DNA of 64,000 nt from a virus (IMGVR_UViG_3300029267_003506), one strand, 5' to 3'; counted from the first letter of the stretch, positions 10,978-60,216 are shown. Notes: generated by a model from the sequence alone, not told the origin. Numbers and translations are program-made.

Positions 10978-10981
10978 CCAG

Positions 10982-11431: not shown

Positions 11432-11433
11432 GC

Positions 11434-12557: not shown

Positions 12558-12570
12558 TCCTTTTCTCCTC

Positions 12571-12972
12571 TTAACTGGTCACTTCGTTGTCGGCATCTTC
12601 GGGCTGCACGGTGCCGCTCTCGTCGCCCGTCATAGTAGTGGAGTCTGCGCTACTGACCGCGTTATCCTTTCTTCCCAGTCCCTTGGGCAACTCCAACACG
12701 AGACCTTCTTCCTGCTTCATCACATCGCTAAGGCTTACCAACACGACACTGTAAGGCGGCGATGCATCAAGGCTTATTTTAACCACCTTTTCATCGTGGC
12801 AACCTTCAGCCTGGGCAGCAACAATGACTCCGCGTATTTTATTGCGAATTTGATTGGCAATCGAAGGTAACTCTTGCGGGGTCGGGATGGACTTCACCGT
12901 TATGTAATCGTCGTATTCCTCGCCCGCGTGAGCCCCAATTGTCTCCTCAGTCGCAACCAACAGCGTTCTCAT
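12571..12972 (-). CDS. hypothetical protein
   Basis: 133-aa ORF. Confidence 0.45.
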   Translation of the reverse strand: MRTLLVATEETIGAHAGEEYDDYITVKSIPTPQELPSIANQIRNKIRGVIVAAQAEGCHDEKVVKISLDASPPYSVVLVSLSDVMKQEEGLVLELPKGLGRKDNAVSSADSTTMTGDESGTVQPEDADNEVTS

Positions 12973-12993
12973 CTTGCCTCCCCATGATCAATC

Positions 12994-18301: not shown

Positions 18302-19642
18302 TTAGTCAAACATTTCTAAGATCAACCCGCGCAATGCTGAATTATTGAGAAGCCACTTCTGATTTCTACCGTCCGCATCTGCACGCCTGGAGAGACGATT
18401 GCAAAGCGCATGACGACAATCTTCAGGGATGTGCTGGTTGGTGATAAACCTCTGAAAATTCTCAATGCGTTCGGGAGTTTGCTTGGTGCTTGGGTCAACC
18501 ATGGTCCCGAACAAGCGCTCTATCATGACACCGAGAATGTCACTACGCGGTTCGTGTTTGTCGCTGGACATCAGTTCACACAACCGTGCGGCTACGTCCG
18601 TCCGACCATCCAAAATATCTTCGGGCTCGACTATGTCCTCCATCTTGCGAGTGCAGAAGACGATAAAAGCGGTGACAGTTTCTTCGTCCAACAACGAATG
18701 AGCATGGAGCATTGCCTGCTTCCGAGCGTCCTCGTTCTGAAGGTTGCCAATGGCTGTCAGTTTCCGAAAGAAATGAGAAAGCGTCCGCAGATTCGTCCGT
18801 TCCTTGCCGTGCATCATTTCGGGCTGATATAACACCCACGAAATCCCGCGATGGTCAAGTTTTTGCTTCGCTGCCCACTCTGCCCACAGTTTGGCATCTT
18901 CAACCAGCGTGACGTGCTCGATGCGCGTTAGAATGGCTTTGTCAATGGTTGTGACCAGGTAATTCTGTTCGTCCGGGTTGCCAGTCAAAACAATATTGCA
19001 GCCCGCCGGGAGCGACCACGATACCATGCCGTAGTTTTGCAGAAGTTGCATGATACCCTTGATGATGCGAATGCTGGCGCGATTCCAGTCATCCAACAGC
19101 AAAATCGCAGGTCCTGGTTTCAAAGGAACCCAGTCAGGAGGAGCCATGATGGTACGGGGCTGAATGCTGGTGTCTACTTCCCAGCCGTCGTCTCGGAACG
19201 CCGCAATGGTCATCTCGTTCTGCGGCACCCATTGTTCTTCGCTCTCGGAATCGCCGTCTCGTCTCCGGCGCATCATGAGGCTATCCATAGGAATGCCGTG
19301 AAGGTCGCCCATCTCCTCGAACTGCGCAATCGGAACGTCATGCACGTCCCATCCAGGGTATTGTTTTCCACGCCATTCTACCGGCGTTTCGCGGAGTTGC
19401 TTGATAATTGAGGTCTTGCCCGTCCCTGGATGTCCCCACACACACTGAGCAATGCGCGGATTGCCGGCTTCTTCTTCGATGTCGTTAAAGCGAAAATTCG
19501 TAGTCAGAAAGTCAACAAGCCTATCCGCCTTGACCTGTAGACCATAGCAGCCTTCGTAGGTGCGCTCGTACTCGTTGAGCCGCTTGTCGTCGTTCGTTCC
19601 CATTCCCTTCCTTTCATTCACTTTCCGGTTGTTACCACTCAA
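18302..19642 (-). CDS. AAA+ ATPase, MoxR/CobS-like
   Basis: Walker A VWGHPGTGKTSI. Walker B ILLLDDWNR. Confidence 0.65.
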   Translation of the reverse strand: MSGNNRKVNERKGMGTNDDKRLNEYERTYEGCYGLQVKADRLVDFLTTNFRFNDIEEEAGNPRIAQCVWGHPGTGKTSIIKQLRETPVEWRGKQYPGWDVHDVPIAQFEEMGDLHGIPMDSLMMRRRRDGDSESEEQWVPQNEMTIAAFRDDGWEVDTSIQPRTIMAPPDWVPLKPGPAILLLDDWNRASIRIIKGIMQLLQNYGMVSWSLPAGCNIVLTGNPDEQNYLVTTIDKAILTRIEHVTLVEDAKLWAEWAAKQKLDHRGISWVLYQPEMMHGKERTNLRTLSHFFRKLTAIGNLQNEDARKQAMLHAHSLLDEETVTAFIVFCTRKMEDIVEPEDILDGRTDVAARLCELMSSDKHEPRSDILGVMIERLFGTMVDPSTKQTPERIENFQRFITNQHIPEDCRHALCNRLSRRADADGRNQKWLLNNSALRGLILEMFD

Positions 19643-22403: not shown

Positions 22404-23639
22404 TCAAACGTAATCCATGTCGGAATCGTCCGCCGCACTCTTCAGCACGTCAATACCGAAGATTTGCATTGCCTGCTCATTGTACACAGCCAGTTCGCCG
22501 CCGGGAACATTCGGATCTGGACTGTCATCCACAAGTTTCCCAAAGACCGCGTCATGCAACGCCCAAGCGATATCTTCGTCGTATTCCCGGTAGAGGTCGC
22601 AAACGCTCACGATGAGGCGCGTTGAGAATGGGGTTGTCACTTCTCCCTGTCGTTTGAGATTCCGTATGGCGTCACGGAACCGGAGCAACTTGCGGACCAT
22701 GCTGTCATTGCCGATCTTTTCTCGCAAGATCGATTCTTCAGCGCGGCGGTTATACCCGTAGTGAAAAATCGCGTCAATACGGTCAAGGGTACTGTCGTCT
22801 AGTGCGTCTCCCTGCGCCACGTAGCCTGCATCCCGCGTACTGAGGATCCCCCTCCCAATCGTATTGCCCAGCAACACAATCCGGAATCCACTGTGGCTCG
22901 TTACTACCCGAGCGCCATCAGCGTCAACCCGGATCTGCCGCCGTGGACTGAAGTTGTCAAGCAGGTTATTCAACCCTATGGCAATCCAACTCGGTATCAT
23001 CGGAAATTCGTCAACAACCAGGAGGGCTGGATTCCCAACTTCGTTGCCTTTTTCGTCAAGACCGCACTTCATGGCGCGGATGACAGGTCCTTCGAGAAAT
23101 TTGATGATACTCTGTTCCGTCTTCTCGTCTACCTCAATGGTTTTCTCGCCAATAAACGAAGCGGTGTCCATGTCCCGCTTGCAGTTGATGAGTTCTAGTT
23201 CCATGTTCAATTCTTCAGCCATCAGCCGCATATGTGTGGTCTTCCCACACCCGGTCGGACCCACGCCGCACACCACCAAGGACGAAGGGCTCTGAATGAG
23301 TTTTTTCATGCGCTGATGCAGGCGTGGCTTGATGTAGGTGTGCTGAATCTTCTTTTTGGACGTCCTTTTCTTGCCTCGTTCTTTTTGTCGCCCCTCTGAG
23401 TGAGTTCCCGAGATGGCAAAGAGCCGGACAGTTTTCGTCGTGTCGTAAATGTCCACAACGATGCTGTCTGCCCCTTTGACAAGACAGCGACGAACTTTGG
23501 ATTTCCGGAGTACGTCAAAGTGGTCGGCAACAACAGGATCGTCCCACCCCACCTCAACAGTTCCGTGTTCAGCAACGAGTTTTTTGACTGCCTCGACTAC
23601 TCGTTGCTCCTCATCTGTAAGACTGGCTTTTGTGGGCAT
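22404..23639 (-). CDS. AAA+ ATPase, MoxR/CbbQ-like (AAA_5-type)
   Basis: Walker A VVCGVGPTGCGKTT. Walker B LLVVDEFPM. Sensor-1-like RIVLLGNT. Confidence 0.75.
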   Translation of the reverse strand: MPTKASLTDEEQRVVEAVKKLVAEHGTVEVGWDDPVVADHFDVLRKSKVRRCLVKGADSIVVDIYDTTKTVRLFAISGTHSEGRQKERGKKRTSKKKIQHTYIKPRLHQRMKKLIQSPSSLVVCGVGPTGCGKTTHMRLMAEELNMELELINCKRDMDTASFIGEKTIEVDEKTEQSIIKFLEGPVIRAMKCGLDEKGNEVGNPALLVVDEFPMIPSWIAIGLNNLLDNFSPRRQIRVDADGARVVTSHSGFRIVLLGNTIGRGILSTRDAGYVAQGDALDDSTLDRIDAIFHYGYNRRAEESILREKIGNDSMVRKLLRFRDAIRNLKRQGEVTTPFSTRLIVSVCDLYREYDEDIAWALHDAVFGKLVDDSPDPNVPGGELAVYNEQAMQIFGIDVLKSAADDSDMDYV

Positions 23640-25320: not shown

Positions 25321-27183
25321 CTACGCCCTGAAACGACCTCTTGTGATGATGTCCGCAAACCGACGGAAGAAATCTTGTCCCATTTGTCGCTCATCTTTCA
25401 GGTAGACAAAATAATCCCTCCCGTAAAACTTCCTCGGTTCTATTGTGCGCACACCGAACCCATATACCTCGACTCCCGCTCTTCGACTGCGCTCACAAAC
25501 GTACTTGAGAAACTGACCCATTTCCTGCTCGTTGTTATGTCCTGCTTCGGGACAACCATCGCTCAAACTGAAAATGATCCTACGGCGCTCTCGGCACGTA
25601 GACAAGCGCGCGACAGCCATCTCAATTGCCTCACAGTCCACATTGTGCTTGAAGGCTGAAATGCGAACTATGCGTGTTTTGACGGCTTCCCATCTCTCGG
25701 TGAAGGTCTTATAAATACGCAACCTGAGAGGGTTTGTTCGATCATAGCCCGGAATTAGTAACTTTCTGGGAATTTCGCCGCCAAAGTATTTCGTGGTACT
25801 TCCGACAATCTCAAAGCGAACCCCCAGTTTGTTCAGGGTCTCCCCCAACGCCGCAACAAGCCGCTGCATGGCGTATCGTGAAGCAGACATCGAAGCGCTT
25901 TCGTCCACAATAATGACTACCGCTGTATCCAATTTCTCACCGTCTCGAACCTGGTAAAAGACCCGTTTGTCCAATCCGGCTGCCGCATCCACAAGCCGCC
26001 GCATGTCAAGTTTTCCGCGTCGCATGTATTGTTCCTTACGAGAGCGACTAAGTGTGCGGAGAGCCTGGTCCAGTGCTCGACTGATACCCATAATGCTGTT
26101 TGCCACTTCTTCGCGGACTGCGTTGAACTGAGCCACACTGGTGCTATCGGGCACCTCGTATGCGTCGTTTTCCCTAATACTGCGATAGCGACGATCTGCC
26201 TCGGGAACTTCGTCGATTTGCGCTTCAAGTTCGCGCCGCAGGAATTCTCCCAGGTCCTCGCCTTCTGCCTCCTTCTCAAGCGCACCAGCAACCTCTTCGT
26301 CTGTTCGATCATCCTTCGTGTTTTCGACCTGTCCACTTGTTTCGTTGTCTGTACTCTCGCCTTCCCTGGGGTCCGCTGTTGCTGTCTCCTTCCCTTGTTG
26401 TCCCTCTTGTTGTCCCTCTTGTTGTCCCTCTTGTTGTCCCTCTTGTTGTCCCTCTTGTTGTCCCTCTTGTTGTCCCTTTTGTTCCCCTTGTTCCCCTTGT
26501 CCTTGCTGCTCTTTCTTTATTGCCTTAATGATGTCGTAAATCTTTCTGGCGATCACCAGGCAATCCCCTGTGGATTCTGCTCCACGCACCTCTTGGTATG
26601 TCTCATAGGCAGCGCTGATGTACTCTGCCGCGAGCCCCTCAGCGCGCCATGCCAACCGCGCCCCCTTGCACATTATCTCCATGGCGCATGCGGCTTCCCA
26701 AAGTGGAATCTCAACGGTTTCCCCACGTTGCACTTGTCCTGCAATTTTCTTGTTGTGGTAGTCCCGGCTCCAGTTGAAAACCACCCGGCAGCCTTCGTAT
26801 TTTCTTGCACCCTTCGCTTCAATTCGGTAATCATCCAGAGAATTCAAAATTGTCTTCAGAGCCTTGTTCTCACGGATTTCCTCCCACTGAGACTCCGAGA
26901 GATGGCTGTGAGCAATGTGGAGTACCTCGTGATAGTAGTAAGCCCGTGCCAACATAAGATCCTGTAGACCGTTGAGTGGCGGCATGAAAATGGTGCGGGT
27001 TTTCACATTGGCACAAGGGGGATTGCCGGGAGCCACATGCTTGATGGTTACCCTACCGTCCCGGCACATGTGTGGGATGATTACTTTGAGGGCACGCTCG
27101 ACCTCCTGAACGGCTTTGAGTTGTTTTTGCCGCTCAACATAGCGAGCATTCTTCTTGCTGTGTTTCGTCGTTGTGGCGCTCAT
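25321..27183 (-). CDS. zincin-like (HEVLH) N-domain plus vWA domain protein with (QEGQQ)n linker
   Basis: HExxH (YYHEVLHIAHSH). vWA MIDAS VIIVDESASMSAS. Low-complexity QEGQQ repeats. Confidence 0.7.
   Translation of the reverse strand: MSATTTKHSKKNARYVERQKQLKAVQEVERALKVIIPHMCRDGRVTIKHVAPGNPPCANVKTRTIFMPPLNGLQDLMLARAYYYHEVLHIAHSHLSESQWEEIRENKALKTILNSLDDYRIEAKGARKYEGCRVVFNWSRDYHNKKIAGQVQRGETVEIPLWEAACAMEIMCKGARLAWRAEGLAAEYISAAYETYQEVRGAESTGDCLVIARKIYDIIKAIKKEQQGQGEQGEQKGQQEGQQEGQQEGQQEGQQEGQQEGQQGKETATADPREGESTDNETSGQVENTKDDRTDEEVAGALEKEAEGEDLGEFLRRELEAQIDEVPEADRRYRSIRENDAYEVPDSTSVAQFNAVREEVANSIMGISRALDQALRTLSRSRKEQYMRRGKLDMRRLVDAAAGLDKRVFYQVRDGEKLDTAVVIIVDESASMSASRYAMQRLVAALGETLNKLGVRFEIVGSTTKYFGGEIPRKLLIPGYDRTNPLRLRIYKTFTERWEAVKTRIVRISAFKHNVDCEAIEMAVARLSTCRERRRIIFSLSDGCPEAGHNNEQEMGQFLKYVCERSRRAGVEVYGFGVRTIEPRKFYGRDYFVYLKDERQMGQDFFRRFADIITRGRFRA
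26390..26480. repeat. 15-bp tandem repeat (CCCTCTTGTTGTCCC x about 6) encoding (QEGQQ)n
   Basis: Perfect tandem copies inside vWA-zincin gene 25321..27183. Confidence 0.8.
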
Positions 27184-32989: not shown

Positions 32990-33583
32990 TTATGTGCCGA
33001 GAATGCGCGTCGCCAAACGCAGCAATTTCCTCACGGTTGCCTGCCTCTGTTTCTTCGCTTTCTCGTCCTTGTATTGCCTCAATAATCCTGGGAGAGCCTT
33101 CCAGCATGCCCTCTTTTCCTCGTCCCAGTCGTGTCTCAGTTCCTCGTCGCTACCACGCGGCACAAAACCGTCTTTCGTCCGCATGAGCCACCAGTTGCCC
33201 TCTTCCCTGGGCACGATGATACAAAACCTTTCCCCCGAACTAATGGGTCCGCCGCCCTCGTACTTCTGAATCCGAAAATAGTAGGTGCCTTGCTGCCAGT
33301 CTCCGCCCGCAGCGCATAGTTCGCACTTGCACCTCATCTTGTCGTTTACTGGTTTTCCGTCCTTCGCAGACTCAAAGGCATCTTCAGGAGTGTCGATAGC
33401 AACACGACGCTGCTCGATTGCATCGTCGTTCTCCAGGTTAAACTGAATACCCTGGCTTTTTTGAGCCTCTTTAACCTTCTCGCGCCAGTCGTCCCTGGCA
33501 AGGTCGCTCACGTCAAAGAAGTGCTTATCAAGTCTAGCCATGTCTCTCTCAATCCAGTGGTTCAAACCCAAAACTGTCCACAA
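32990..33583 (-). CDS. hypothetical protein
   Basis: 197-aa ORF. Confidence 0.5.
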   Translation of the reverse strand: MWTVLGLNHWIERDMARLDKHFFDVSDLARDDWREKVKEAQKSQGIQFNLENDDAIEQRRVAIDTPEDAFESAKDGKPVNDKMRCKCELCAAGGDWQQGTYYFRIQKYEGGGPISSGERFCIIVPREEGNWWLMRTKDGFVPRGSDEELRHDWDEEKRACWKALPGLLRQYKDEKAKKQRQATVRKLLRLATRILGT

Positions 33584-33971
33584 TCCACGCTTTGTTGCCG
33601 ATTTTGATTACGTCGCCGACAGACATAGACGTGTGATGTGCGCCTGACTTGCGAATGAAATCACGCGCCTCCCCGCCGGGTGACCACCTCTCACCTTGCA
33701 TCATGGCGAATATCTTGTTCAGGTTCGCCTCCTTGATGGAACCCAAAAGCACGTGTGTCTTTTTGAGCACCTTCGGGTCGGGCACTAATCCTTGCTTGCG
33801 CAGCCAATTCATTCCCATCATCCCGTCCCGCGCAAAACGGTCGTTCTGATACCAAATTTCGGTGCGTCCCGGAGCCAGTCCCTTCTCAAAAACCTCGAAA
33901 TCATTCAAGGTCCGAAACTGGGCAATTAGAAGCCTCGCCACAGCCAATATTTCTCTTGCGATACGTTCCAT
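33549..33971 (-). CDS. peptide-box family member (divergent N-terminal box MERIAREILAVARLL)
   Basis: N-terminal amphipathic box, then a unique C-terminal part. Confidence 0.5.
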   Translation of the reverse strand: MERIAREILAVARLLIAQFRTLNDFEVFEKGLAPGRTEIWYQNDRFARDGMMGMNWLRKQGLVPDPKVLKKTHVLLGSIKEANLNKIFAMMQGERWSPGGEARDFIRKSGAHHTSMSVGDVIKIGNKAWIVDSFGFEPLD

Positions 33972-33980
33972 GGGATCCTC

Positions 33981-36900
33981 CTATGCATATTTCCGCTTAA
34001 GATCAGCAACCATCTTCTCAACCTGCCTGATGCCCTCTTTGGTTTCAGGGATGCTCACCGTCTCTCCCCTATCAATGCGCTTGTGACGCTGGTAGATGCC
34101 ATTGACGCCCCACCCGGGTGTGCGCATGATAACCCACCGATAGAGCAACAACCGCACATCCTCTTCCTCGTTCAGGGGGATGCTATACATGTCCTTCGCG
34201 TGATATTTCATCCCCAGACGTCTTTCAAGGAGCGCGATGAAATCCTTTGGTCGTATCCTGTCTTCTTCCCCGGACTGCTCGCCAAATATCTTCTCCAGGC
34301 GACGAGCCGGCAGTACCACCTTCGGGTCGGCAGCATCCTTTGTCTCGTCCAGCGTCACAAACTTCGACTTGAAGATGTTAGTCTTCCTGCCGCCCACGAA
34401 AGCAACCGAATTGTAGAGCGCAGCATTGTCGTGGTGGGCGTACTTGTAGACGTCAAACGAAACGTAGTCATCTCCCTCCAGGTCTATCAGCACCTTTACC
34501 GTCCAGCCGTCTCTCGTCGCATGTGCCCTCTTGATGCCTGCCTTTTTGACTGGCGCGAATTTCTCAACCCATGCGCTGAATCTAGGAAGTGCGGATTTCA
34601 TAGTCCCCACGAAATCTTCCATCTCATCCTTTTGTTTCTTTTCCCTTTCTTCCTTTTCTTCCTTGGATTTCTCGTAGCGCTTTTCTAGTTCCTCACGCCG
34701 GCGTTGCTCTCTGACATCCTGGAGATTGATGATGTTCGGAGCCGTCGCCAAAATCGCCTGGGCAACCCTCTCCTCTACAGTCATCTCGGAAGAAAGCCTC
34801 ATGAGACCAGTTGTGCGCTCTCCGGTCTCCCTTGCGCGCTGTCTCACTTGTCGCATTGTAGGACCGCGCTTGACCCAATCCACGAGTTTCTTAAGGAGTG
34901 TTTCGTCGCCGCCTCGCTGCTTGATTGACCAGAAATCATGCTCGTTCCAGCGCTGGTCTCTCCCATCTACCAGCAAGTAGTTCGCCATGAAATCACGGGA
35001 ACCCACCCCAACACGCCGGGCACTATCCGGGAGTCCCATCTGCATGCCAGCCTTCCCGTGTCTCTCTCCCAAGTACTTCAACCCCAGTTCATGGAGTTTC
35101 TCTTTCAAAACCAGTGACCGTTCTTCCATTGTCTCATTGCGCTTCTGAGGCTCGACCCGGAAAACATTGACATAGGGCTCCTTGGTAAAAACATACGTGT
35201 CTTTCTCTCCCCGGTTGCCAATCACGGTCACAACGAGCGCGTCGTCCCGCACCTCAGCATACGGAATTTCTTGGACACCAATCTCGGCAAGGGCTTCATC
35301 TAACGGCTTCCCAAGTGGCTTTCTGGAAACCGCTTTGGGTCTCTTCGCGCGGTGTGTTTTGCCAGGAAAGATGGCAGCGTGAGACCATTTTGACCCGTTC
35401 CCGTATTCACGCACGACTTTGGCAAAATCCTTATGCGTCGGAACGTCCAAAACGGCAGCAGCAACCCTCTCGGCGATGCTGCTTTGGTCCAGAAAGCCAA
35501 TCTCTTCCTGGTCGTCGATTCCCGCCTCGCACGCAACAGTATCAGCAAGAAGACTCAACTCCGTCGCAATAACCTGCATATCCATAAGATCCTCCTCACT
35601 CGCCACCTTGAGCCCGTTAACTTTTCTGAACAAATATACCAGACGCTCAGGCATCGGTTTGTTCGTGATGTAATGCGCAAATGCCTCAGCGTAATCTTCC
35701 CGCGTATTGTTTTTCCCGTATTCCGTCGTGCTCTCCAGTTCAACAAGTGTCGCGCCGATTGATTTCCTCGCCGCATCCTTAAGACGCCCGAAAGGCTTGT
35801 GGACGTATTTTTTCATGAATTCATAGTCTTCCCTCGGTCGACCACGCATCCTGCTGGGAAGAATCTCCGGGTCTTGCTCGCCGGCTAATACCTCAGCCAC
35901 AGGCGGAATCCACTTGGCATCCCAGTAAGAACCGCCAAATGATCCCTCTTCGACTAGGTAGCCGATGTACTTCCTGCGAGCCGTCTTGATGTTGCCGCCT
36001 GAAAAACCGTGGGCGCTCCTCACTATCAAATCGTACACGTCTAGTAGCGCGTGCTTCGCCTGCCCCCTTCTAAGCGCAGCCAGAAATCTCTTGTATCCGA
36101 ACTCTGTCCAATTCGGATACTCAAACCCTAGCGCGTCTTTCTCGAACGGAACAGCCTTCTTGAACAACGCATAAACCATGTCCACCTGCTGCTTACTCAC
36201 TCTCGTCGCCCGGTTCTCAAAGTCCCCCTCCCACATCGCCCGCTGCGTCGAGCCCATCTTCTTGTACCAATGTCTGTGCCCCAGTTCATGTGCAAACAAC
36301 GTAGGATTTATGCTGTCCGCATTCACCACCACGATGTCCCTCGACTGGTCATAGTAGGCACCCGCCGTCATGCTCTTGTACTTCTTCGCCTGGTCGTTGT
36401 AAACGCTGAACCCGTCAAGCTTGCTAGAGACGACAATTATTGGACCATACAATACATTGCCGAAGCCGAGTTTCTTCATCTTGGCAATGACAGGCTTTAA
36501 CTCAGAAAGAGCCCTAGCCATGTGGTCATCATTTAGACCAGCATTGACAATCGTGAATGGTCCGTACTCGAACTTCTCTTTTATCTTACCGTAACCAGCG
36601 GCACCCTCTCCCTTGCCTGTCCCAAAGACGTAGCCGTGCTTCTCCAAGAGCGCCCGGAGCGTATCGGCACCTTGTTCGGCTCGCTGCAATAGGCTCGGGC
36701 GCTCAGACGATTCGAGACTCACCATGCTTGGGTCGTAGCCTTCCTTGAGAAGATAATCGAGTTTTTTGACTACCTCGCGTGTGTTATCGTCCTGCAGCAC
36801 GGCGTGGGCTAACGTCGATTTCTCGTTCGGTCCATAGAGACCATTGACCATCATGCCAAGTGAAACGCCATGGTCGCGTTTGAAATCAGTCATCGCGTTC

Positions 36901-37037
36901 TTGAGGTCGGACAAAGAACCACTCTTGGCTGCGTCGTACAAGATGGTCTGAAGATAATCGTTGACGGTGGGCTTGTCTGCCGCCTCTTCAGCAGAATGTT
37001 TAACGAAGGCTTCGGCAGTCGTGGATACGCACCTCAT
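33981..37037 (-). CDS. giant ankyrin-repeat plus zincin (HELGH) metallopeptidase protein; polyvalent-protein-like
   Basis: N-terminal ANK-like repeats (TLAHAVLQDD...VVKKLDYLLKEGYDP). HExxH at LFAHELGHRHWY. 1018 aa. Confidence 0.65.
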   Translation of the reverse strand: MRCVSTTAEAFVKHSAEEAADKPTVNDYLQTILYDAAKSGSLSDLKNAMTDFKRDHGVSLGMMVNGLYGPNEKSTLAHAVLQDDNTREVVKKLDYLLKEGYDPSMVSLESSERPSLLQRAEQGADTLRALLEKHGYVFGTGKGEGAAGYGKIKEKFEYGPFTIVNAGLNDDHMARALSELKPVIAKMKKLGFGNVLYGPIIVVSSKLDGFSVYNDQAKKYKSMTAGAYYDQSRDIVVVNADSINPTLFAHELGHRHWYKKMGSTQRAMWEGDFENRATRVSKQQVDMVYALFKKAVPFEKDALGFEYPNWTEFGYKRFLAALRRGQAKHALLDVYDLIVRSAHGFSGGNIKTARRKYIGYLVEEGSFGGSYWDAKWIPPVAEVLAGEQDPEILPSRMRGRPREDYEFMKKYVHKPFGRLKDAARKSIGATLVELESTTEYGKNNTREDYAEAFAHYITNKPMPERLVYLFRKVNGLKVASEEDLMDMQVIATELSLLADTVACEAGIDDQEEIGFLDQSSIAERVAAAVLDVPTHKDFAKVVREYGNGSKWSHAAIFPGKTHRAKRPKAVSRKPLGKPLDEALAEIGVQEIPYAEVRDDALVVTVIGNRGEKDTYVFTKEPYVNVFRVEPQKRNETMEERSLVLKEKLHELGLKYLGERHGKAGMQMGLPDSARRVGVGSRDFMANYLLVDGRDQRWNEHDFWSIKQRGGDETLLKKLVDWVKRGPTMRQVRQRARETGERTTGLMRLSSEMTVEERVAQAILATAPNIINLQDVREQRRREELEKRYEKSKEEKEEREKKQKDEMEDFVGTMKSALPRFSAWVEKFAPVKKAGIKRAHATRDGWTVKVLIDLEGDDYVSFDVYKYAHHDNAALYNSVAFVGGRKTNIFKSKFVTLDETKDAADPKVVLPARRLEKIFGEQSGEEDRIRPKDFIALLERRLGMKYHAKDMYSIPLNEEEDVRLLLYRWVIMRTPGWGVNGIYQRHKRIDRGETVSIPETKEGIRQVEKMVADLKRKYA

Positions 37038-37046
37038 AATCTCTCT

Positions 37047-37076
37047 CTGAAAAAGGGGGGCATTTAAGCCCCCTGA
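37047..37076 (-). terminator. intrinsic terminator or attenuator hairpin immediately 5' of the giant gene
   Basis: GGGGGC-ATTTAA-GCCCCC stem followed by TTTTTC on the minus strand. It ends about 10 nt before the RBS and ATG at 37037. Confidence 0.5.
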
Positions 37077-37112
37077 CCGGTGTTGTCCCGGCGTGTGGGT
37101 GCGCGGCGTTCC

Positions 37113-37700
37113 TTATGACCGCGCCCCAAATCCTTCCATTTCCAGCAACTCAACCGCTGCTAGTTCGTCTTCCGGCATCGTCTTCGACAGCGCCAGGACC
37201 CGTACCGTCACCCCTCGCGAATCGCCCACAATCCATGCCGGTTCCTTCCGAAAATCCAATTCCGGAATGTCACGCTCGATGGCAAACACTTCACGCTTTA
37301 ACCGCTGACGAAGTTCCTTCTCTGTCGCCGTCGCCCAACCAACAGAAACCAGGGAACCAGCAGGACCAATCGTCGTCTCAAATCCCAAAACAAACCCGCG
37401 CGCCGTGTAAGAGTAGAACTTCTCCGTGCGCACTGCAGCCGTTTTCTCGACCTCGGAGGCTACTTTCCGTTCTTCCAAATCCGGGAATTGGGACTGAATC
37501 TCCCTGGCTAACCACAGAGTGCCCTTTTCCTCTGCCTTTTCAAGCATCTGGTCAATCCTCCGCGCCGTCGCCGGAGAAAGCCCCCGTAGCCGGTTCCCGT
37601 CGTCGCGTAGCATCCACATGGCAAGGTTCAATGCCCACTTCTCGACACGAGCCGCTAGACAGATGACCTCATTCGCGATACGTTCTGCGATGCGCTTCAT
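37113..37700 (-). CDS. peptide-box family member (divergent box MKRIAERIANEVICLA)
   Basis: N-terminal box variant. 195 aa. Confidence 0.5.
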   Translation of the reverse strand: MKRIAERIANEVICLAARVEKWALNLAMWMLRDDGNRLRGLSPATARRIDQMLEKAEEKGTLWLAREIQSQFPDLEERKVASEVEKTAAVRTEKFYSYTARGFVLGFETTIGPAGSLVSVGWATATEKELRQRLKREVFAIERDIPELDFRKEPAWIVGDSRGVTVRVLALSKTMPEDELAAVELLEMEGFGARS

Positions 37701-38122
37701 CGGAACCCCTTTATCAGCGGAACTATACCCTTATCTGGCAGCCCTGTTTCCTTCTTGCCGAGAATCTTGTCCTTGTCGAGACCCAATCCGAAGATGTCCG
37801 AGAACTCAATCAGCCCACGCGGCCCCTCGCCGCTGTAGCCCCATGAGAACCCATCGAAATTGTGCGTCGCCCTGTGGCCGTCGCTCGGGCGCACAAAGTC
37901 CACCTCCAGGTCCCAGTTGACACCCGTCTTGTCGTACTCGTAGACCGGGTCATCTGCAATCTCATAGCCAGCGCCCTTGATGAGCCGGGCGTTCGCGATG
38001 CTGGCTCTGGTTGCCCCCTCGGTCTTTAGCTGTAGGGGTCTCATAATCGTGAACGGGCTTTTCACAGCCTCCAGCAGCTTGGCCACCCGTATGAGTTCAC
38101 CCGCAATGCGCCTGTCGTCCAT
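37697..38122 (-). CDS. peptide-box family member (MDDRRIAGELIRVAKLL)
   Basis: Canonical N-terminal box. RBS GGAGGAA. Confidence 0.6.
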   Translation of the reverse strand: MDDRRIAGELIRVAKLLEAVKSPFTIMRPLQLKTEGATRASIANARLIKGAGYEIADDPVYEYDKTGVNWDLEVDFVRPSDGHRATHNFDGFSWGYSGEGPRGLIEFSDIFGLGLDKDKILGKKETGLPDKGIVPLIKGFR

Positions 38123-46283: not shown

Positions 46284-46631
46284 ATGGAACTCGTCATCAC
46301 GGCTGTCCCCACAAACGAGAACCGCATACCAGCCATCAAAGCGCTCCGCGAAGTCACTAATCTGGGGCTCAAGGATTCAAAACTCATCATTGACTCGGTC
46401 GCAGCCGGTGAAACACGGCAAATCTCCCTCAACAAGGAAAAAGCCACCCGAGCGACAACAACACTCCACAACGCCGGCTTCACCTTCTCCACCTACGACC
46501 CAAGTGACGACATTATCCAACACATCAAGGCAGCCATCCAATTGGCAACTCAGCGAGAAATGCCTTCCGTGCTGCCGCATCTCACCGTGGCTTTTGCAAA
46601 AGCGCTTGAACTGAAAGAACAAATCACATGA
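46284..46631 (+). CDS. ribosomal protein L7/L12 C-terminal-domain homolog (stand-alone CTD)
   Basis: IPAIKALREVTNLGLKDSKLIIDSVAAGE...LNKEKATRATTTLHNAGFTF aligns with the bL12 CTD ([26 protein letters not shown]...). No N-terminal dimerisation or L10-binding domain. Confidence 0.6.
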   Translation: MELVITAVPTNENRIPAIKALREVTNLGLKDSKLIIDSVAAGETRQISLNKEKATRATTTLHNAGFTFSTYDPSDDIIQHIKAAIQLATQREMPSVLPHLTVAFAKALELKEQIT

Positions 46632-47489: not shown

Positions 47490-47924
47490 TCAGAACGTCA
47501 TCTGACCGCGCATTCTCTTTTCGAATTGCTTCAGTTCCCTGCGTTCTGCGGAGGTCAGGTCAGGTTCTTTGTCCCAGAGTTCCTTGACCCTCTGGCGTTC
47601 TCTCTTGTTCAGGTTGCTCGGTTCGTCCGCCGCTACGATTTCCTTCGCCAACCGCAGCAACTCGGATGCTACCGCAGAGGCAGACAGGTTCCTCATCAAG
47701 CCCTTCTTGTTTTTGATGACTTGTTGCAGCCCTCGGATTACGCTCTTGGCTCCGTCCTCGCTCAGGTTCTCCACTGATTCGCCCCTCTGAATCTTCTTCA
47801 GGGCATCTTCGTACCAACGCAGGTCAGCCTCGTCCTTTTTCAATGCGGCTTCCCATTCCTTCTTCGTCGTCCTGGGCATCTGACTCCTCCATCTAACCGT
47901 CGCGCAAGTTTTCTTACGCGACAA
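47490..47924 (-). CDS. peptide-box family member (box internal: SAVASELLRLAKEIVAA)
   Basis: The box lies at about aa 84-97. An alternative start MRNLSAS at 47696 would make it N-terminal. Confidence 0.5.
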   Translation of the reverse strand: MSRKKTCATVRWRSQMPRTTKKEWEAALKKDEADLRWYEDALKKIQRGESVENLSEDGAKSVIRGLQQVIKNKKGLMRNLSASAVASELLRLAKEIVAADEPSNLNKRERQRVKELWDKEPDLTSAERRELKQFEKRMRGQMTF

Positions 47925-48094
47925 TTTCTCGGTTCAACTCAATTTGCACTTCATCTGATTCTTCTTCGCCGCACCTGTTTCGCAAGATGCGCTGAACGGA
48001 GTATAGCATACTCAGCAGCGTATTACATGACCGAATGACTTGCGTTTCCGAGGTGGGCTCATCGGTCAAGTCTGACACACTCATCGCACACCTC

Positions 48095-49444
48095 CTAGAA
48101 CATCATACTCGGCAATTTTATTCCCAAAGCGTGTGCTGCCTTGAAGATGTTGTTTCTGTGAAGGTCCGCTCCCCTTACATGACCGCTCACGCTCATCTTT
48201 AGTCGGTTTATGGCTTCCCTCTGATTGCGGTCAGGCGTGAAATCCTTAGCAAGTTGAACCGCAACCTTGAGTGCCAGTTCATACGTCTGCTCGTCTACTT
48301 CGCTTTTCAATTTGTGAATGTCCTTCGGGTCAATCAGGGCATAGAACAAACTTTCAGATGCTTGCCTGTTGCCTTCTTCTGAGGCGCTTTTCTTCTTCAG
48401 TGCTGCGAGGTCCTTTTTTAACGCAGTTTCGACCTTCTTGATGTCAACGTCGTCAAGATCAAGATGTCCAGCAAGAGCCTTCAGACTGGCAACGTCTTCC
48501 CTGAGCGCCTGTTGTACCCGGTTGCGCAAGAGTTTGAGGTCGAGCTTGTCACCTTCGGCTTTCGTTGCCTTGTCGTGAAGAGCCTGCATTTCCTTCACAG
48601 CGTCTTGGACCTTTTTCTTGGCTTCCTCTGGCGTCATGTTTTTGGTGGGTGCGTAGGTAATCCTCTTTGCCAGCCGCACCAATTCTCTCGCGACCTGTCT
48701 CATCTCTGCTCCTTCTCTCGGATGTTTCCAGACCCGTTCCTGCCGGCTACATCCCTTCGGTTTTCCGTGGCACGTTCTTTTCCGCTGCTTTTCCATTTCT
48801 CTCTGGATTTGCTGCTTGTGTTTCTGGTTGTATTTCCGTTGCTCTTTGATTTTTTTCTTGCGCTGGATTCCCTTTAATGGTGGTTCCTTGGTTACAGCCA
48901 TTTGCGTCGCCGAAGAAGTTACCATCTCCGTCATGACCTTCGTAATCTTTTCCTTCAGTTTTCTGAGGATGTACGCCGGCACCTTCCTTAAAGCGAGGGG
49001 TATCGTCCTGATTATGCTACCCATTTCGTCATCCATCAAGAGGGCGCGCGCATGGTGCATTCTGCTGCTTATCTCCTTTTCACCATTTTTCTCCATGACC
49101 ATTAGCAAGCCATCGTATGCCTCTCGCGCCAGCTCCCCGACGAGGGCATTTTTGAACGTTTTCATAGCCTGCTCAAAGCGCTCCTGGATACCCTTAATCT
49201 CCTTCTGTACTCGGTGTTTACCATCCGGAGTGTAGTAGTGTGTGAACCAGTACCACAGCCCAGCAGACTTTACGATGCCAAACCAGGCACGTCGTAGTGA
49301 TTTCGACGTTAAAATCACGTCAGCCCACCAATTCAGCGGCAACCGGTCAAGGCAAATCGTCATACAGCTCGCGTGAACGGGACCATATTTCCCCTTCACG
49401 CGCTTGCATGCTGCCAAAACAAAATCAGGGACCTCGTCTGTCAT
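48095..49444 (-). CDS. peptide-box family member (box internal: MRQVARELVRLAKRI at about aa 248)
   Basis: 449-aa ORF. There is an in-frame ATG at 48702 with RBS GGAG, so it could be two products or one protein with an internal box. Confidence 0.5.
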   Translation of the reverse strand: MTDEVPDFVLAACKRVKGKYGPVHASCMTICLDRLPLNWWADVILTSKSLRRAWFGIVKSAGLWYWFTHYYTPDGKHRVQKEIKGIQERFEQAMKTFKNALVGELAREAYDGLLMVMEKNGEKEISSRMHHARALLMDDEMGSIIRTIPLALRKVPAYILRKLKEKITKVMTEMVTSSATQMAVTKEPPLKGIQRKKKIKEQRKYNQKHKQQIQREMEKQRKRTCHGKPKGCSRQERVWKHPREGAEMRQVARELVRLAKRITYAPTKNMTPEEAKKKVQDAVKEMQALHDKATKAEGDKLDLKLLRNRVQQALREDVASLKALAGHLDLDDVDIKKVETALKKDLAALKKKSASEEGNRQASESLFYALIDPKDIHKLKSEVDEQTYELALKVAVQLAKDFTPDRNQREAINRLKMSVSGHVRGADLHRNNIFKAAHALGIKLPSMMF

Positions 49445-49454
49445 TTTCCAGTCC

Positions 49455-49799
49455 TTATCCGGTCACAACAATCCTGGCTATCTTCACCAGTTCAGAAGCC
49501 ACGTTAAGCGCCAAACCGGTAGGAACAGTATGGTATCTCGCCAGACTAATGGGATAGCGCCGGTCGTTCGTCAAACGCACTCTTAATGCCGTTTGTTGAT
49601 CCTTCAGCATGATCTCTTTTTGACTGCGCTTCGACACTTTCCAGCCGGCAGAAGTCAAAACATCCACAACGCCGAAAATGTCATCGCTCGACACTAAGAA
49701 TCGTTCTATCGCGCCACTCATCGCGTCGGGTTTCTCAACCACGCGAAAGCCTGCCCGCTTGAGAGTGTAGGGTATCGCAGGTTTGGCTCGTCGCTTCAT
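49455..49799 (-). CDS. peptide-box family member with the box at the C-terminus (ALNVASELVKIARIVVTG-stop)
   Basis: 114-aa ORF. Confidence 0.5.
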   Translation of the reverse strand: MKRRAKPAIPYTLKRAGFRVVEKPDAMSGAIERFLVSSDDIFGVVDVLTSAGWKVSKRSQKEIMLKDQQTALRVRLTNDRRYPISLARYHTVPTGLALNVASELVKIARIVVTG

Positions 49800-51307
49800 T
49801 TTCTCGTGTCCCAGCGCGTCACAGTCAAATCAGGATCGACCGTGAACAAAAAAGCACCCGAGTTGTTTATCGGATTCAATGCCTCGTTTTCCTTGAACGT
49901 CACTCTCCACACCGCCGTTCCGTAGGAGTTACCAGGATAGACATACGCTCTTTGCTCGTGCTTTCCGGCATAGTAGCCCCCAGAGATAACCGCGCTGTTA
50001 ACATCTCCCTTGTTCCGAGCCTTGAGTTTCATTCCCTGGAGTTGCTCGGTTACTCGCTTTTCGGCACGTCCATTCGTCATCCGCAATTTCATGCTAGCCC
50101 TTTTTGCGATTTTCACCATCTTCAGTCGGGCGCGCTTCACTTTTTTGATGACCTCGCCGTCTGATTCGAATTCCCCCGCGATGGTCATGGTCTTGCCCTT
50201 AAGCACTGGTCTGGGAGAAACATCCTCGTATCCATTGAGCCACGCATCAAAATCATCTGCCATGTCTTGAGGCAAGTTCCTGTCCAACCAATCAGCGCTT
50301 ACCATGATAAAACAACGTTCAGGGTAACGCTTATCCACTCCTCCTAAACCGACCGAGGTTCCGTACTGTCCTTCGTAAACCTTCACGAACTGTATCTTCA
50401 GTTCTAGTTCAGTCTTAGTAGGAGCCCGTGGAAATCCTTCGAGTGCGTCCTTTGTACTCTCCCTCTCGGCATCTTCTAACATGCGTTCCCACATCTTGTC
50501 TGGAATACGCACACCGTCATCTAATTCCCCCAGCCATTTCTTCCAGAAATCGTTGTCGCCCAACCATTCTTTGGCAAAGTCGATTTCTTTCCGGTGCTCA
50601 TCAAACCACGGATCTTCTTTCTCTTCTTGAACGAGCCCGAGATTTGCTGGGCGGTCAAACGTAACTTGGAAACCGACAAGTTCAGGACCTAGCCCCTCCT
50701 TCTCGTTGTACTTCATCTTGCCTTTTAACTCTCGCACAATACCGTAATCATCGACAAAATACACGTAGAGCATGTATCGCTGCTTTTTGCCCCAGTTTCT
50801 CCCGTGCCAGTATTCCGTACCAACAATGCCCGTGTAAGGCTGGGAAGGTGCCTTGGCAAGCATCTTAGCAGAAAAATAGCCACTCGTCGGGCTCTTGCCA
50901 CCTCTCTGAATCATACGTTTGATGAAGTCACGTTGCTTCGGGGACTCCCAAAGACCATTGTTGCTCTTTGTCAAAGACCTCAGTGACCGATATAGCCGTC
51001 CCTGCGGTTCTCCTCCCCCTGCTTCATCCATCAAGAACTTTGCCCTGGAACCCAACAGCAAGTCGGCAACTCTGATTAGTTCGACAGCAATACGCCTGTC
51101 TGTTGTCTCACCGTCTTTTTTCACCGACATCCTTGCCGTGCGTTTCCGGGCTTTCAGTCTGGGCTTCTGCCTGTCTATTTCCCACTGCCCCTTTCGCATG
51201 ATCCAAGGCACACCTTCATACCAAAACAACGTCGCCCCCATCTGCGCCGCCGTTGCTTTGGCTTTTTGGAAAGTAATGTTGGTATATGTGACGTCAGCGA
51301 TACTCAT
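49796..51307 (-). CDS. peptide-box family member (box at aa about 70: TDRRIAVELIRVADLLLG)
   Basis: 503-aa ORF. ATGA overlap with the upstream gene. Possible alternative start MSVKKDGETTDRR. Confidence 0.55.
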   Translation of the reverse strand: MSIADVTYTNITFQKAKATAAQMGATLFWYEGVPWIMRKGQWEIDRQKPRLKARKRTARMSVKKDGETTDRRIAVELIRVADLLLGSRAKFLMDEAGGGEPQGRLYRSLRSLTKSNNGLWESPKQRDFIKRMIQRGGKSPTSGYFSAKMLAKAPSQPYTGIVGTEYWHGRNWGKKQRYMLYVYFVDDYGIVRELKGKMKYNEKEGLGPELVGFQVTFDRPANLGLVQEEKEDPWFDEHRKEIDFAKEWLGDNDFWKKWLGELDDGVRIPDKMWERMLEDAERESTKDALEGFPRAPTKTELELKIQFVKVYEGQYGTSVGLGGVDKRYPERCFIMVSADWLDRNLPQDMADDFDAWLNGYEDVSPRPVLKGKTMTIAGEFESDGEVIKKVKRARLKMVKIAKRASMKLRMTNGRAEKRVTEQLQGMKLKARNKGDVNSAVISGGYYAGKHEQRAYVYPGNSYGTAVWRVTFKENEALNPINNSGAFLFTVDPDLTVTRWDTRK

Positions 51308-51594
51308 TTCACGGTTGCCTTTGCCTGCTCAAAGAGACCATGCACCGTCGAATTCATTGTGCGCAGAGCCGGAATGATGTGGGCGTCAATAATATCCGGA
51401 GAAATCGTCCTGCCTGCTCCTGCCCGCTGCGCTCCCTTAAGTTGCCTCTGAGCAGCGTCCACGGCTTTCTGCACCCGATCTAAGTCCTGCTGCAGAATCT
51501 TCACCAACGAGTCACCGCTCTCGATAAGCCGGGTTGCCTGTTCCCACTGCTTTTCGCTATATGCTACGCGCTCGGCAATTTCGTTTTGATTCAT
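51304..51594 (-). CDS. hypothetical protein (MNQNEIAERVA...)
   Basis: Start at 51594. Its N-terminus resembles that of gene 58176..58526 (MNQEQVADRVA...). Confidence 0.45.
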   Translation of the reverse strand: MNQNEIAERVAYSEKQWEQATRLIESGDSLVKILQQDLDRVQKAVDAAQRQLKGAQRAGAGRTISPDIIDAHIIPALRTMNSTVHGLFEQAKATVK

Positions 51595-51607
51595 GCCACA
51601 ATCTCCA

Positions 51608-52024
51608 TCAAAAAGCCTGCAGACGGAATTTCTGTCTCTTAACGACTTTCTCCGCAGCAGCAACATCGTCAGCAGAAAACGAAGCGCCCCCGGAGACGTA
51701 CATGCGACCACCAACATTCAACAAGACAGCATCCGTCGGCTTCTCGGTTATCCTGTACGCCGAACCATTTCCCTTCAACCCAGCCTCGACAGCGGAGAGT
51801 TTCTTAGCCATCTGCTTGACTGCATCATTGGCGTCGGCGTTGACGTCCTTGAGAATGTCACCAGTTCTTACCTCCCTGAGTGCTTGCAGGATAATTGAGT
51901 CACCGATAACGTCATACACGAAAAACATCCCAGCCGCTTCTTTTGCCCCGCCAACGAGTTCCTTGGCTAGGCGCACCAATTTCTCGGCTACCATCTTATC
52001 TGAAACACGCGCCTTCTTACTCAT
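51608..52024 (-). CDS. peptide-box family member (MSKKARVSDKMVAEKLVRLAKELVGG)
   Basis: 138-aa ORF. Confidence 0.55.
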   Translation of the reverse strand: MSKKARVSDKMVAEKLVRLAKELVGGAKEAAGMFFVYDVIGDSIILQALREVRTGDILKDVNADANDAVKQMAKKLSAVEAGLKGNGSAYRITEKPTDAVLLNVGGRMYVSGGASFSADDVAAAEKVVKRQKFRLQAF

Positions 52025-52047
52025 CCTTTTCCTCCGTCTGCAGAATC

Positions 52048-52524
52048 TTAAACCGATGCCTCAACGCTCACCATCTTACTCATCACATCCTTGAATGCAT
52101 CCAAGGCAACATTGAGTTTTTTGACAGTGTTCCGGATAACAGGCTCCCGGCTCCGCTTCATCTTATCCCTGACCGCAGTAAACTCGTCCTGCAGCCTTTC
52201 TAGCCGTGAAATAGCCATTGCGATTACTGAGCCCATGTCCGCGCCAGCAACAGGACGATGAGAAGCCGTCAAGTACAAACTCTCAGCACTCCTTTTCAAC
52301 CGAGCCAGCAAAGTCACCATGCTCTTGAGGGCGTCATTTAACAAACTCGCGGCGTCAGGATTGGACTGGCGCAGGTCACGATACCACCGATTCAGGGAGT
52401 TGTATTCAGTGTCGAGTTTGTCAATCAGTTCATAGGGAAACTTCGTTTGCCACTCGTCCACTTCAGGAGAAATATCTCTGGCGATGGCAACCAGTTCCTT
52501 GGCGATCTGAATGTTGTTCATCAA
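52048..52524 (-). CDS. peptide-box family member (variant MMNNIQIAKELVAIARDI)
   Basis: 158-aa ORF. Confidence 0.5.
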   Translation of the reverse strand: MMNNIQIAKELVAIARDISPEVDEWQTKFPYELIDKLDTEYNSLNRWYRDLRQSNPDAASLLNDALKSMVTLLARLKRSAESLYLTASHRPVAGADMGSVIAMAISRLERLQDEFTAVRDKMKRSREPVIRNTVKKLNVALDAFKDVMSKMVSVEASV

Positions 52525-58175: not shown

Positions 58176-58526
58176 CTATCTCGGAAAAATCTCTCTGCGC
58201 TGTTTGTCAGCGTAATCATCCGGTGTGCCGAATTGCTTGATGAATTTGCGCTCTGCCCCTGCGACGCGGTCAAACGCCTTGGTAGTCAGTGCATTGATGT
58301 GTTTGAGGAGTTTCCCAATGAGCACCACCATCTCCTTGGCATCCCTCTCCCCTGGTCCGCCGGAATAAGAGGCAGCAATGTCGTACCTGTCCCCCACCTG
58401 CCGCAGGGCTGTCTCGGCATCGTGCAACTTGTTCCATATTGGGTCAAGCGCCTCATTCACGGTCTCTGGTCCCATTAGAGCCACGACATGATTTGCCACC
58501 CTGTCAGCCACTTGTTCCTGGTTCAT
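58176..58526 (-). CDS. hypothetical protein (MNQEQVADRVANHVVALMG...)
   Basis: 116 aa. ATGA overlap with the upstream gene. The out-of-frame 296-aa ORF-track ORF that contains it was rejected. Confidence 0.45.
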   Translation of the reverse strand: MNQEQVADRVANHVVALMGPETVNEALDPIWNKLHDAETALRQVGDRYDIAASYSGGPGERDAKEMVVLIGKLLKHINALTTKAFDRVAGAERKFIKQFGTPDDYADKQRREIFPR

Positions 58527-59188: not shown

Positions 59189-59194
59189 GGTTCA

Positions 59195-60201: not shown

Positions 60202-60216
60202 CCCTCAACTCCTGCT

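Follow-up and report, generated by a model that had tools for sequence, protein, structure and literature searches.

The locus described here raises the question of what kind of protein a phage makes when a single long open reading frame (ORF) joins domains that other phages keep apart. The ORF, which encodes 1018 amino acids (aa), lies on the minus strand of a 64,000-nucleotide (nt) stretch of viral DNA, IMGVR_UViG_3300029267_003506, which at its full length we call the window. An initial annotation, made from the DNA by itself, had described the product as a protein with ankyrin repeats and an HExxH zincin protease, similar to the polyvalent proteins that phages inject, and had noted a terminator-like hairpin directly before its gene. 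We found that the ORF fuses three genes that are kept separate in related phages: one for an ankyrin-repeat zincin (module A), one for a member of an uncharacterized family (module B), and one for a domain of the type found at the C terminus of the phage protein Rki, preceded by the remnant of a J-domain (module C).

The reading frame itself held up. It is ATG-initiated and occupies positions 33981..37037 (-), and the peptides quoted for it are present, with TLAHAV at aa 75, EDYAEAF at aa 447-453, and HELGH, its sole HExxH, at aa 250-254. Because the identical protein is encoded on eight contigs of up to 132 kb from JGI, ENA, and Logan assemblies, the ORF is not an assembly artefact.

As a single query, the 1018-aa protein found no match in Pfam even at E<=10 and no relative in the PDB, and tblastn against 50,697 deposited phage genomes was likewise negative. 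A word-indexed protein database returned one distant relative, and a profile query there, dominated by ankyrin words, gave four proteins. An exhaustive HMMER scan of 1.84 billion representatives produced 286 matches, which fall into three non-overlapping sets of standalone proteins covering aa ~90-485 (set A, proteins of 455-590 aa), aa ~520-745 (set B, 230-250 aa), and aa ~775-1017 (set C, 250-366 aa). Hidden Markov models (HMMs) built for each module map to aa 154-473 (A), 538-743 (B), and 801-1017 (C), and all invariant residues of the three modules are kept in the 1018-aa protein. Among 59 fetched loci, the modules are fused at this locus only. Elsewhere they occur as neighbors: in L021, a zincin gene, a gene joining a J-domain to module C (J+C), and a second zincin gene lie side by side; in L036, zincin and J+C genes are two nucleotides apart; and in L004, module B and a zincin are encoded 3 kb apart on the same strand. 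In 185,579 species genomes of bacteria and archaea the family is nearly missing, two marginal matches being the only ones found.

The neighboring zincin and J+C genes have a further property. In L036 (9338..10579 and 10581..12131) and L021 (7329..8426 and 8446..9561), the adjacent products have their first ~14-20 residues in common, the leader pairs being MITSEEMLDFLDEKQ / MITSKEMLDFLEQQ and MFQLNNSIKRLSEGYK / MFRFNKSFQNLKRGFK. These leaders differ from the box peptide described below, so the theme of a shared leader recurs with lineage-specific sequences in two unrelated phages.

Support for an ankyrin region and a zincin in module A came from family profiles and from a predicted structure, both of which recover the two domains; the single sequence recovers neither. 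A family profile that includes the 1018-aa protein matches DARPins, ankyrin-1, and tankyrase with E-values down to 1e-20 over profile positions 17-113. The Pfam Ank models are passed by 5 of 16 homologs alone, and the copy in the 1018-aa protein is degenerate and aligned in register with theirs. Across the alignment of these 16 members, H250, E251, H254, R255, E447, D448, A450, and E451 do not vary, and conservation of Y440 is 90% or higher; the same residues are conserved in an alignment of the catalytic domain from 21 sequences. An AlphaFold (AF2) model of aa 1-515, made with the family alignment, has a predicted local distance difference test (pLDDT) score of 78.8 overall and above 90 across aa 240-470, and it shows both the stacked helix-turn-helix repeats of the ankyrin fold and the mixed sheet with active-site helices of a zincin; a single-sequence model (pLDDT 38) was unusable. 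In the model, HELGH lies in the helix 245-260 and E447 in the helix 445-457. The glutamate expected downstream of the zinc motif is thus present, but it is not nearby: E447 lies 193 residues past the HExxH because a helical insert of ~170 aa separates the two active-site helices.

The closest solved structures identify the type of zincin. When a catalytic profile free of ankyrin repeats was compared with the PDB, anthrax lethal factor was the only solved family recovered (E=0.006). The alignment pairs HELGH with HEFGH, and EYGkNNtrEDYAEAF with SYGRTNEAEFFAEAF / YGRTNEAEFFAEAF, at identical Y-x6-E spacing; the aligned segment of lethal factor is one that we take to carry Tyr728 and the zinc ligand Glu735. 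Foldseek comparison of the model with the PDB gave a gluzincin as every top match, with weak E-values, and comparison with BFVD gave standalone jumbo-phage peptidases as the best matches (E=1.5e-6 to 1e-5, probability 1.00), polyvalent-protein entries of BFVD appearing at non-significant levels only. Within Pfam, 11 of the 21 catalytic-domain sequences match Peptidase_Mx (PF15887; below its 27-bit gathering cut-off, best E=8.4e-5), six match Peptidase_Mx1, and two match MPTase-PolyVal (PF18818), while a distant relative, P0066, passes the Peptidase_Mx cut-off at 34.3 bits. The lethal-factor model PF07737 is matched by one of the 21 (E=0.025) and not by the 1018-aa protein, which is a structural relative of the anthrax lethal factor family and not a member of it. 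Four distant module-A relatives (P0038, P0100, P0036, and P0131) are proteins of 900-1500 aa with two to three zincin copies; P0038 adds a eukaryotic-type topoisomerase IB and P0100 a GNAT acetyltransferase, architectures of polyvalent style in the wider family.

Module B has ~30 standalone homologs of ~230-250 aa, nearly all of them headed by the box peptide, and is characterized by the motif GKRP...DTYVFT...LG.R.GKAGEQFG..ARRIAVG.RD.LLN...WVK.GPTM.EVR. No relative of it was found in Pfam, the PDB, or cultured phages. Two members matched DUF294, probably through extra regions.

Module C leads to phages in culture. Its standalone members have a J-domain (with the HPD motif present), a box, or both, ahead of a domain with the signature IPLG...YR..MR.P.WGVNGIY, and a typical member matches 203 cultured phages, of which most are T4-like phages of Klebsiella, Aeromonas, Enterobacter, and Escherichia. 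RB43, RB16, and KP15 are among them, and the RB43 match is gp057w, the protein named Rki. An HMM of module C freed of the J-domain recovers RB43 Rki at aa 93-237 (E=8e-20) and KP15_51 at aa 97-316 (E=3e-24), and a BLASTP comparison of KP15_51 with the module C of the 1018-aa protein gives E=2.6e-5. By these matches, module C belongs to the Rki family. Ahead of it, a J-domain remnant scores 12.5 bits against positions 11-39 of the J-domain HMM, compared with maxima of 5.9 bits in 500 whole-protein shuffles and 9.6 bits in 1000 local shuffles, and the alignment is gapped across the HPD loop and helices III-IV. Module C, with a remnant of this kind and no HPD, is therefore derived from a gene of the Rki type in which the J-domain has since decayed. 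Rki is expressed early and is cytoplasmic, binds host DnaK, and stabilizes sigma-32; its toxicity requires both of its domains, and it is fused in-frame to its downstream neighbor in RB16 and KP15 (PMC3486835). Since the 1018-aa protein has no HPD, it cannot act as a DnaK co-chaperone in the way of Rki.

One observation concerns Rki itself. The module-C HMM reaches position 231 in the KP15 fusion (L063 2498..4207) and ends at position 159 in RB43 Rki, and the motif resumes at the start of RB43 058w (FYRHVMMRKGAYVFSAVY in KP15; L062 2501..3214 and 3281..4198). By this alignment, a single ancestral domain seems to have been split into RB43 Rki and 058w; KP15 and RB16 would then not be secondary fusions.

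The box is a 16-residue peptide, M-x-RR-[IV]-A-x-E-L-[IV]-R-x-A-K-x-L, that recurs across the window. A box HMM identifies 15 ORFs at 10 bits or more, all on the minus strand, and none in reversed controls (9103 ORFs). Nearly all boxes are N-terminal once start codons are re-chosen. The tagged proteins have no mutual similarity after the box is masked, and almost all are ORFans. The box is conserved as a peptide: its invariant Ala uses all four codons and its Leu five, and identical residues agree in the third codon position at a rate of 0.39. A role as a DNA or RNA element was rejected on this ground, since synonymous codons vary freely. Boxes are likewise found at the head of genes in L001, L004, and L059 and of most standalone module-B proteins, and at the C terminus of several standalone zincins; L003 and L005 have zincin homologs and no box genes in 20 kb. 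A literature search found no paper containing the box peptide strings. Two boxes of the window are not N-terminal. The 449-aa ORF at 48095..49444 (-) has an internal box at aa 249-263, directly after an in-frame ATG, which could reflect another fusion or a mis-called start, and the 114-aa ORF at 49455..49799 (-) has its box at the extreme C terminus (aa 100-112). The ORF at 61024..61533 (-), with a rubrerythrin-like domain (PF02915, E=3.8e-7), encodes the only box protein with a recognizable domain.

The A/B boundary of the fusion contains two stretches, given as junctions 1 and 2 in Table 1, that fall where standalone proteins have their boxes. The first aligns with the C-terminal boxes of the standalone zincins P0009, P0010, and P0024 and with the equivalent stretch of P0002, and the second aligns, with a 3-residue deletion, onto the N-terminal boxes of standalone module-B proteins. 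The box HMM finds no match in the 1018-aa protein, the two stretches included, so by alignment these stretches are decayed relics at best. The positions of all features are collected in Table 1.

Table 1. Features of the 1018-aa ORF and its surroundings, in window coordinates
Feature	Position	Strand	Details
1018-aa ORF, fusion of modules A, B, and C	33981..37037	-	ATG start; ORF listing, HMMER and local HMM scan
Degenerate ankyrin-repeat region, aa ~25-135	36633..36965	-	about 2-3 repeats
Lethal-factor/PPEP-like gluzincin catalytic domain, aa ~152-480	35598..36584	-	
HELGH (H250, E251, H254)	36276..36290	-	predicted: two zinc ligands and catalytic base
YGKNNTREDYAEAF (Y440...E447...E451)	35679..35720	-	predicted: catalytic Tyr and third zinc ligand Glu
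Junction 1, box-like helix DMQVIATELSLLADTVA, aa 486-502, ends module A	35532..35582	-	positional alignment
Junction 2, decayed box QSSIAERVAAAVLD, aa 518-531, before module B	35445..35486	-	positional alignment
Module B, uncharacterized domain family, aa ~533-745	34803..35441	-	~30 standalone homologs
J-domain remnant, helices I-II only, aa 760-790	34668..34760	-	inside a long charged helix
Module C core, Rki-type C-terminal domain, aa ~801-1017	33987..34637	-	phrog_13942, E=1e-5
Terminator-like hairpin GGGGGC-TTAAAT-GCCCCC + CTTTTT	37050..37073	-	stem-loop 37073..37056; CTTTTT 37055..37050
Second, smaller hairpin GCCGG-GACAACA-CCGGT, immediately upstream	37076..37092	-	joint fold
Upstream gene 2, 195 aa, weak box	37113..37700	-	regular-expression match MKRIAERIANEVICLAARV; <10 bits with HMM
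Upstream box gene 1, 141 aa	37697..38122	-	box 15.7 bits at aa 4-19
Downstream box gene, 140 aa	33549..33971	-	box 12.1 bits at aa 2-17
Box ORF locations	33549..33971, 37697..38122, 47490..52524, 58523..61666	-	including a tandem run of ~8 small genes at 58.5-61.7 kb

Our preferred explanation, which we hold with about even confidence, is that the 1018-aa protein is a cytoplasmic host-takeover effector in which three genes have been fused in-frame. The ankyrin domain would recruit a specific protein substrate, most likely one of the host, and the zincin would cleave it, with zinc held by H250, H254, and E447, E251 serving as the base, and Y440 assisting. The Rki-type module and module B may act on the same pathway, plausibly DnaK/sigma-32 proteostasis, and with its J-domain decayed module C would no longer activate DnaK itself. 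The gene would be transcribed as a delayed gene, by polymerase reading through the hairpin after two leader genes.

Several observations weigh against this explanation. Searches of Pfam and the PDB with the single sequence failed, and every domain assignment relies on family profiles and on structure prediction; the profile match to lethal factor is marginal and the Foldseek E-values against the PDB are weak, and the catalysis and substrate of module A are predictions from sequence. Adjacency of zincin and J+C genes was seen in 2 of 56 zincin loci, no zincin lies near J+C in cultured phages, and P0003, the module-A homolog nearest to the 1018-aa protein (43% identity), is encoded by a lone gene on a contig where such adjacency is absent. 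Loss of the HPD may mean that module C is functionally decayed or has been put to a use unrelated to DnaK. As for the hairpin, its T-tract is short, with just five T after a C, and L001 has no conserved terminator at the corresponding position, only a weak hairpin upstream of its homolog.

P0003 adjoins a T4-type RNA ligase gene. On its contig (L059), the T4-type RNA ligase 1 gene lies immediately upstream of the zincin and is accompanied by one for a TROVE (Ro60-like) protein (2784..3968 and 12154..13968), which suggests an RNA-repair gene set.

Expression of the gene turns on the hairpin, which the initial annotation had placed about 10 nt before the start codon, directly after two box genes, with the suggestion of attenuated read-through. 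The distance was close, the T-tract ending 12 nt and the stem 18 nt before the ATG, and the hairpin is stable: with its six G-C pairs and 6-nt loop it folds at -14.3 kcal/mol, far from zero, makes up 90% of the ensemble, and has z=-2.5 relative to shuffles, and it folds together with the smaller hairpin before it at -22.4 kcal/mol (z=-3.7). Of the two box genes, 37697..38122 has a strong box (15.7 bits), but that of 37113..37700 is weak (<10 bits). The hairpin lies in a true intergenic gap of 75 nt, 38 nt past the TAA of the upstream gene, and has the GC-rich stem, short loop, and U-tract directly 3' of the stem that define an intrinsic terminator; the tract of five U is followed by CAGAG, and the sequence past CTTTTT reads CAGAGAGAGATT-ATG. 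Among sites combining a hairpin with a T-tract on both strands of the window, it ranks fourth. Terminator-like sites are not enriched in the region overall (16 found against 12.6 expected from shuffles), and the case therefore depends on the individual strength and position of this hairpin. With a gap of only 12 nt between T-tract and ATG, the gene must be reached either by read-through of the hairpin or from a weak promoter embedded in it. Attenuated read-through is plausible from the layout. Read-through of a terminator is the classic immediate-early/delayed-early layout of T4-type phages.

It is also possible, although we consider it doubtful, that the hairpin does not attenuate, being either the full terminator of a two-gene leader operon with an embedded weak promoter or a structure for RNA processing or stabilization. 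A weak sigma-70-like pair, GGGACA (37089-37084) and TTAAAT (37067-37062) spaced by 16 nt, does overlap the hairpin, and a promoter there would place the transcript start close to the T-tract, giving a leader of 18 nt with a GAGAGAG ribosome-binding site. Of 12 consensus positions the pair matches 8; the key A at position 2 is missing from its -10 element, it falls below the scan threshold, and a sigma-70-like consensus may not be the phage's own promoter type. The GenBank record of KP15 shows the same layout, with a putative terminator (L063 2451..2472) 26 nt before the Rki-family gene, and in RB43 the corresponding gap contains an early promoter of rki itself (PMC3486835). The hairpin is followed by more than 10 genes in the same orientation, a layout not usually expected past an efficient terminator and one that we count for this alternative; that terminator-like sites are no more frequent than in shuffles counts against it.

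Two other identities of the hairpin were rejected: it is unique in sequence and hence not a repeated element, and it is not a known RNA family, a match to SAM_alpha at E=0.26 being chance. The databases hold no intermediate relatives of the hairpin locus. The strongest terminator-like hairpins of the window lie elsewhere, at 44112 (-) / 44141 (+), where a bidirectional 12-bp stem (AAAAGGGCTAATTCC...GGAATTAGCCCTTTT, about -18 to -19 kcal/mol) marks a convergent gene boundary, and at 47231 (-), where a hairpin of -19.8 kcal/mol is followed by T6.

The initial annotation had also likened the protein to the polyvalent proteins. The likeness stands in that the protein is multi-modular with a lethal-factor-like metallopeptidase, ankyrin, zincin, B, and C exceeding the two distinct domains in one polypeptide that the term calls for; membership does not, as the 1018-aa protein has no Pfam match to PF18818, SNF2, methylase, ART, ArdC-N, or LPDs, and 2 of the 16 homologs match PF18818 weakly (E>=0.002). 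The metallopeptidase domain (MPTase) of polyvalent proteins is their hub, with variable inserts between its catalytic helices, and autoprocessing or cleavage of host proteins has been proposed for it (PMC5512222). On this model the 1018-aa protein would be packaged in the virion and injected with the DNA, and its metallopeptidase would cut the module junctions and free B and C. We regard this as improbable. An architecture of several modules around a lethal-factor-like MPTase hub (PMC5512222), the very large multi-domain relatives of module A with topoisomerase IB, GNAT, and two to three HExxH copies, and the two homologs that touch PF18818 all speak for it, as do the coincidence of the junctions with box helices in position and the box itself, a peptide tag common to many proteins that recalls the T4 capsid targeting sequence (CTS; PMC3012670). 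Yet the family matches Peptidase_Mx more often than MPTase-PolyVal (11 against 2 of 21), the 1018-aa protein has neither PF18818 nor the hallmark partner domains, its gene stands among DNA-metabolism genes and not beside head or MuF genes, and matches to polyvalent proteins in BFVD are non-significant. The junction boxes go unscored by the box HMM, and Rki, the sole studied relative, is made early after infection (PMC3486835).

Equally, we think it unlikely that the zincin processes the phage's own box-tagged proteins, for maturation or timing, with its C-terminal box as a tether or autoinhibitory pseudo-substrate. Box genes and the zincin subfamily do co-occur in the window and in L001, L004, and L059; the zincin bears the box C-terminally and other proteins N-terminally; and the box, the sole element common to otherwise unrelated proteins, is under selection as a peptide. 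Lethal factor cuts near the N termini of its substrates, which we count in favor. Nevertheless, close homologs with both ankyrin and zincin occur in phages without box genes in 20 kb (L003 and L005), most zincin loci are boxless, the L004 zincin has no ankyrin and yet sits among box genes, and cleavage at the box is a supposition of this alternative. The same loci leave the idea that the ankyrin domain binds the box unsupported, given that the L003 and L005 ankyrin-zincins occur without boxes and the zincin of the box phage L004 without ankyrin.

A bolder version, which we offer as a long shot, is that the box is an undescribed address tag that marks at least 15 ORFans for one fate (packaging, a hub, or timed removal), that the ankyrin-zincin reads or removes it, and that the 1018-aa protein is a self-processing polyprotein cut at the decayed boxes of the A/B and B/C junctions. 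Finally, a decaying, non-functional fusion born of accidental read-through is very improbable: the ankyrin region is too degenerate for Pfam, the junction boxes have decayed, the J-domain is without HPD, and the fusion is unique to this lineage, but the invariant residues of A, B, and C are all kept in an open frame maintained over 3 kb, the identical protein is found on eight contigs from several sources, and RB16 and KP15 show functional in-frame fusions in the Rki family (PMC3486835).

The surroundings of the gene are those of a tailed phage. The window encodes a large terminase (5745..7586) and a portal (3074..5089), from which the 1018-aa gene is ~27 kb removed. Counted from a divergent intergenic region, it is the third gene; 37697..38122 (-) is the first and is preceded by a strong Shine-Dalgarno sequence, GGAGG. 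The box gene 33549..33971 (-) begins 9 nt past the stop codon of the 1018-aa ORF, and genes for SPFH/Band-7, HhH-GPD, PD-(D/E)XK exonuclease, and CobT/VWA proteins are found downstream. The gene thus sits amid genes of DNA metabolism and host takeover. An island of horizontal transfer was rejected, base composition being uniform across the region. Elsewhere in the window lie genes for an AAA ATPase (PHROG "ATPase" / "porphyrin biosynthesis") and for a VWA protein similar to CobT (18302..19642, 22404..23639, and 25321..27183, all minus strand); chaperone pairs of the MoxR/CobS-CobT type have been noted in large phages, and these genes resemble them. At ~46284..46631 (+) (L002 407..754), a 115-aa gene has a precomputed Pfam match to Ribosomal_L12 (PF00542) and would encode a phage homolog of ribosomal protein bL12.

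Of phage J-domain proteins, Rki alone has, to our knowledge, a host target that has been demonstrated, namely DnaK and sigma-32. If the fusion has the meaning we favor, it would serve as a "Rosetta stone" that ties the lethal-factor-like proteases of large phages, the Rki family, and the module-B family together, and it would yield the testable hypothesis that the three families act on the same host proteostasis pathway. Ankyrin repeats joined to a protease are a layout of intracellular bacterial effectors, and their pairing in a phage would suggest targeted cleavage of a specific host protein. The box tag may mark a set of co-regulated or co-targeted ORFans in a phage clade seen in metagenomes only. 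Lethal-factor-like metallopeptidases in multi-domain phage proteins (PMC5512222) and Rki were already known, and ankyrin repeats are common; new here are an ankyrin-zincin subfamily with a large insert, its fusion and neighborhood linkage to the Rki and module-B families, the decayed J-domain, and the box tag.

Among known systems, module A resembles lethal factor and PPEP-2/3 (MEROPS M34; ATLF PF07737), to which its sequence similarity is marginal. Unlike lethal factor, the 1018-aa protein has an ankyrin N-domain in place of the PA-binding and VIP2-like domains, is encoded by a phage, would act in the cytoplasm, and has ~170 residues inserted between the catalytic helices. Peptidase_Mx and Mx1 (PF15887 and PF15890; structure 4l7a, BACCAC_01431), themselves uncharacterized, are matched by family members chiefly over the second (Glu) motif, and by the 1018-aa protein not at all. 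The closest viral structures are peptidases of the Pseudomonas phage PaBG (S5WBB3), the Erwinia phage pEa_SNUABM_5 (A0A7T8IVQ4, annotated "endopeptidase family M34"), and the Achromobacter phage Motura. These are single-domain proteins of ~320-360 aa, without ankyrin, module B, or module C, and tblastn with the 1018-aa protein does not match them. The sporadic zincins of jumbo phages probably cleave host proteins, according to Iyer et al. (PMC7824862). The PF18818 MPTase of polyvalent proteins (Iyer et al. 2017, PMC5512222) is, like module A, related to lethal factor and part of multi-domain phage proteins, whereas the partner domains are absent here and the gene context is neither that of virion genes nor that of early injection.

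The closest documented analog of the box is the T4 CTS, the one element conserved among internal proteins that otherwise differ (PMC3012670). Both are short, conserved N-terminal peptides common to otherwise unrelated proteins. The likeness is one of analogy, drawn from the sequences, between which there is no relationship; the box is also found C-terminally on zincins, and, unlike the CTS, many box genes stand in runs of small genes that resemble early-gene clusters. A further parallel is offered by Rki, KP15_51, and the RB16 protein. The 1018-aa protein differs from Rki in having J-domain helices I-II only, with no HPD, and in being fused to a protease and to module B; module C is homologous to the non-J C-terminal domain of these proteins, a family with the same tendency toward in-frame fusion to neighboring genes.

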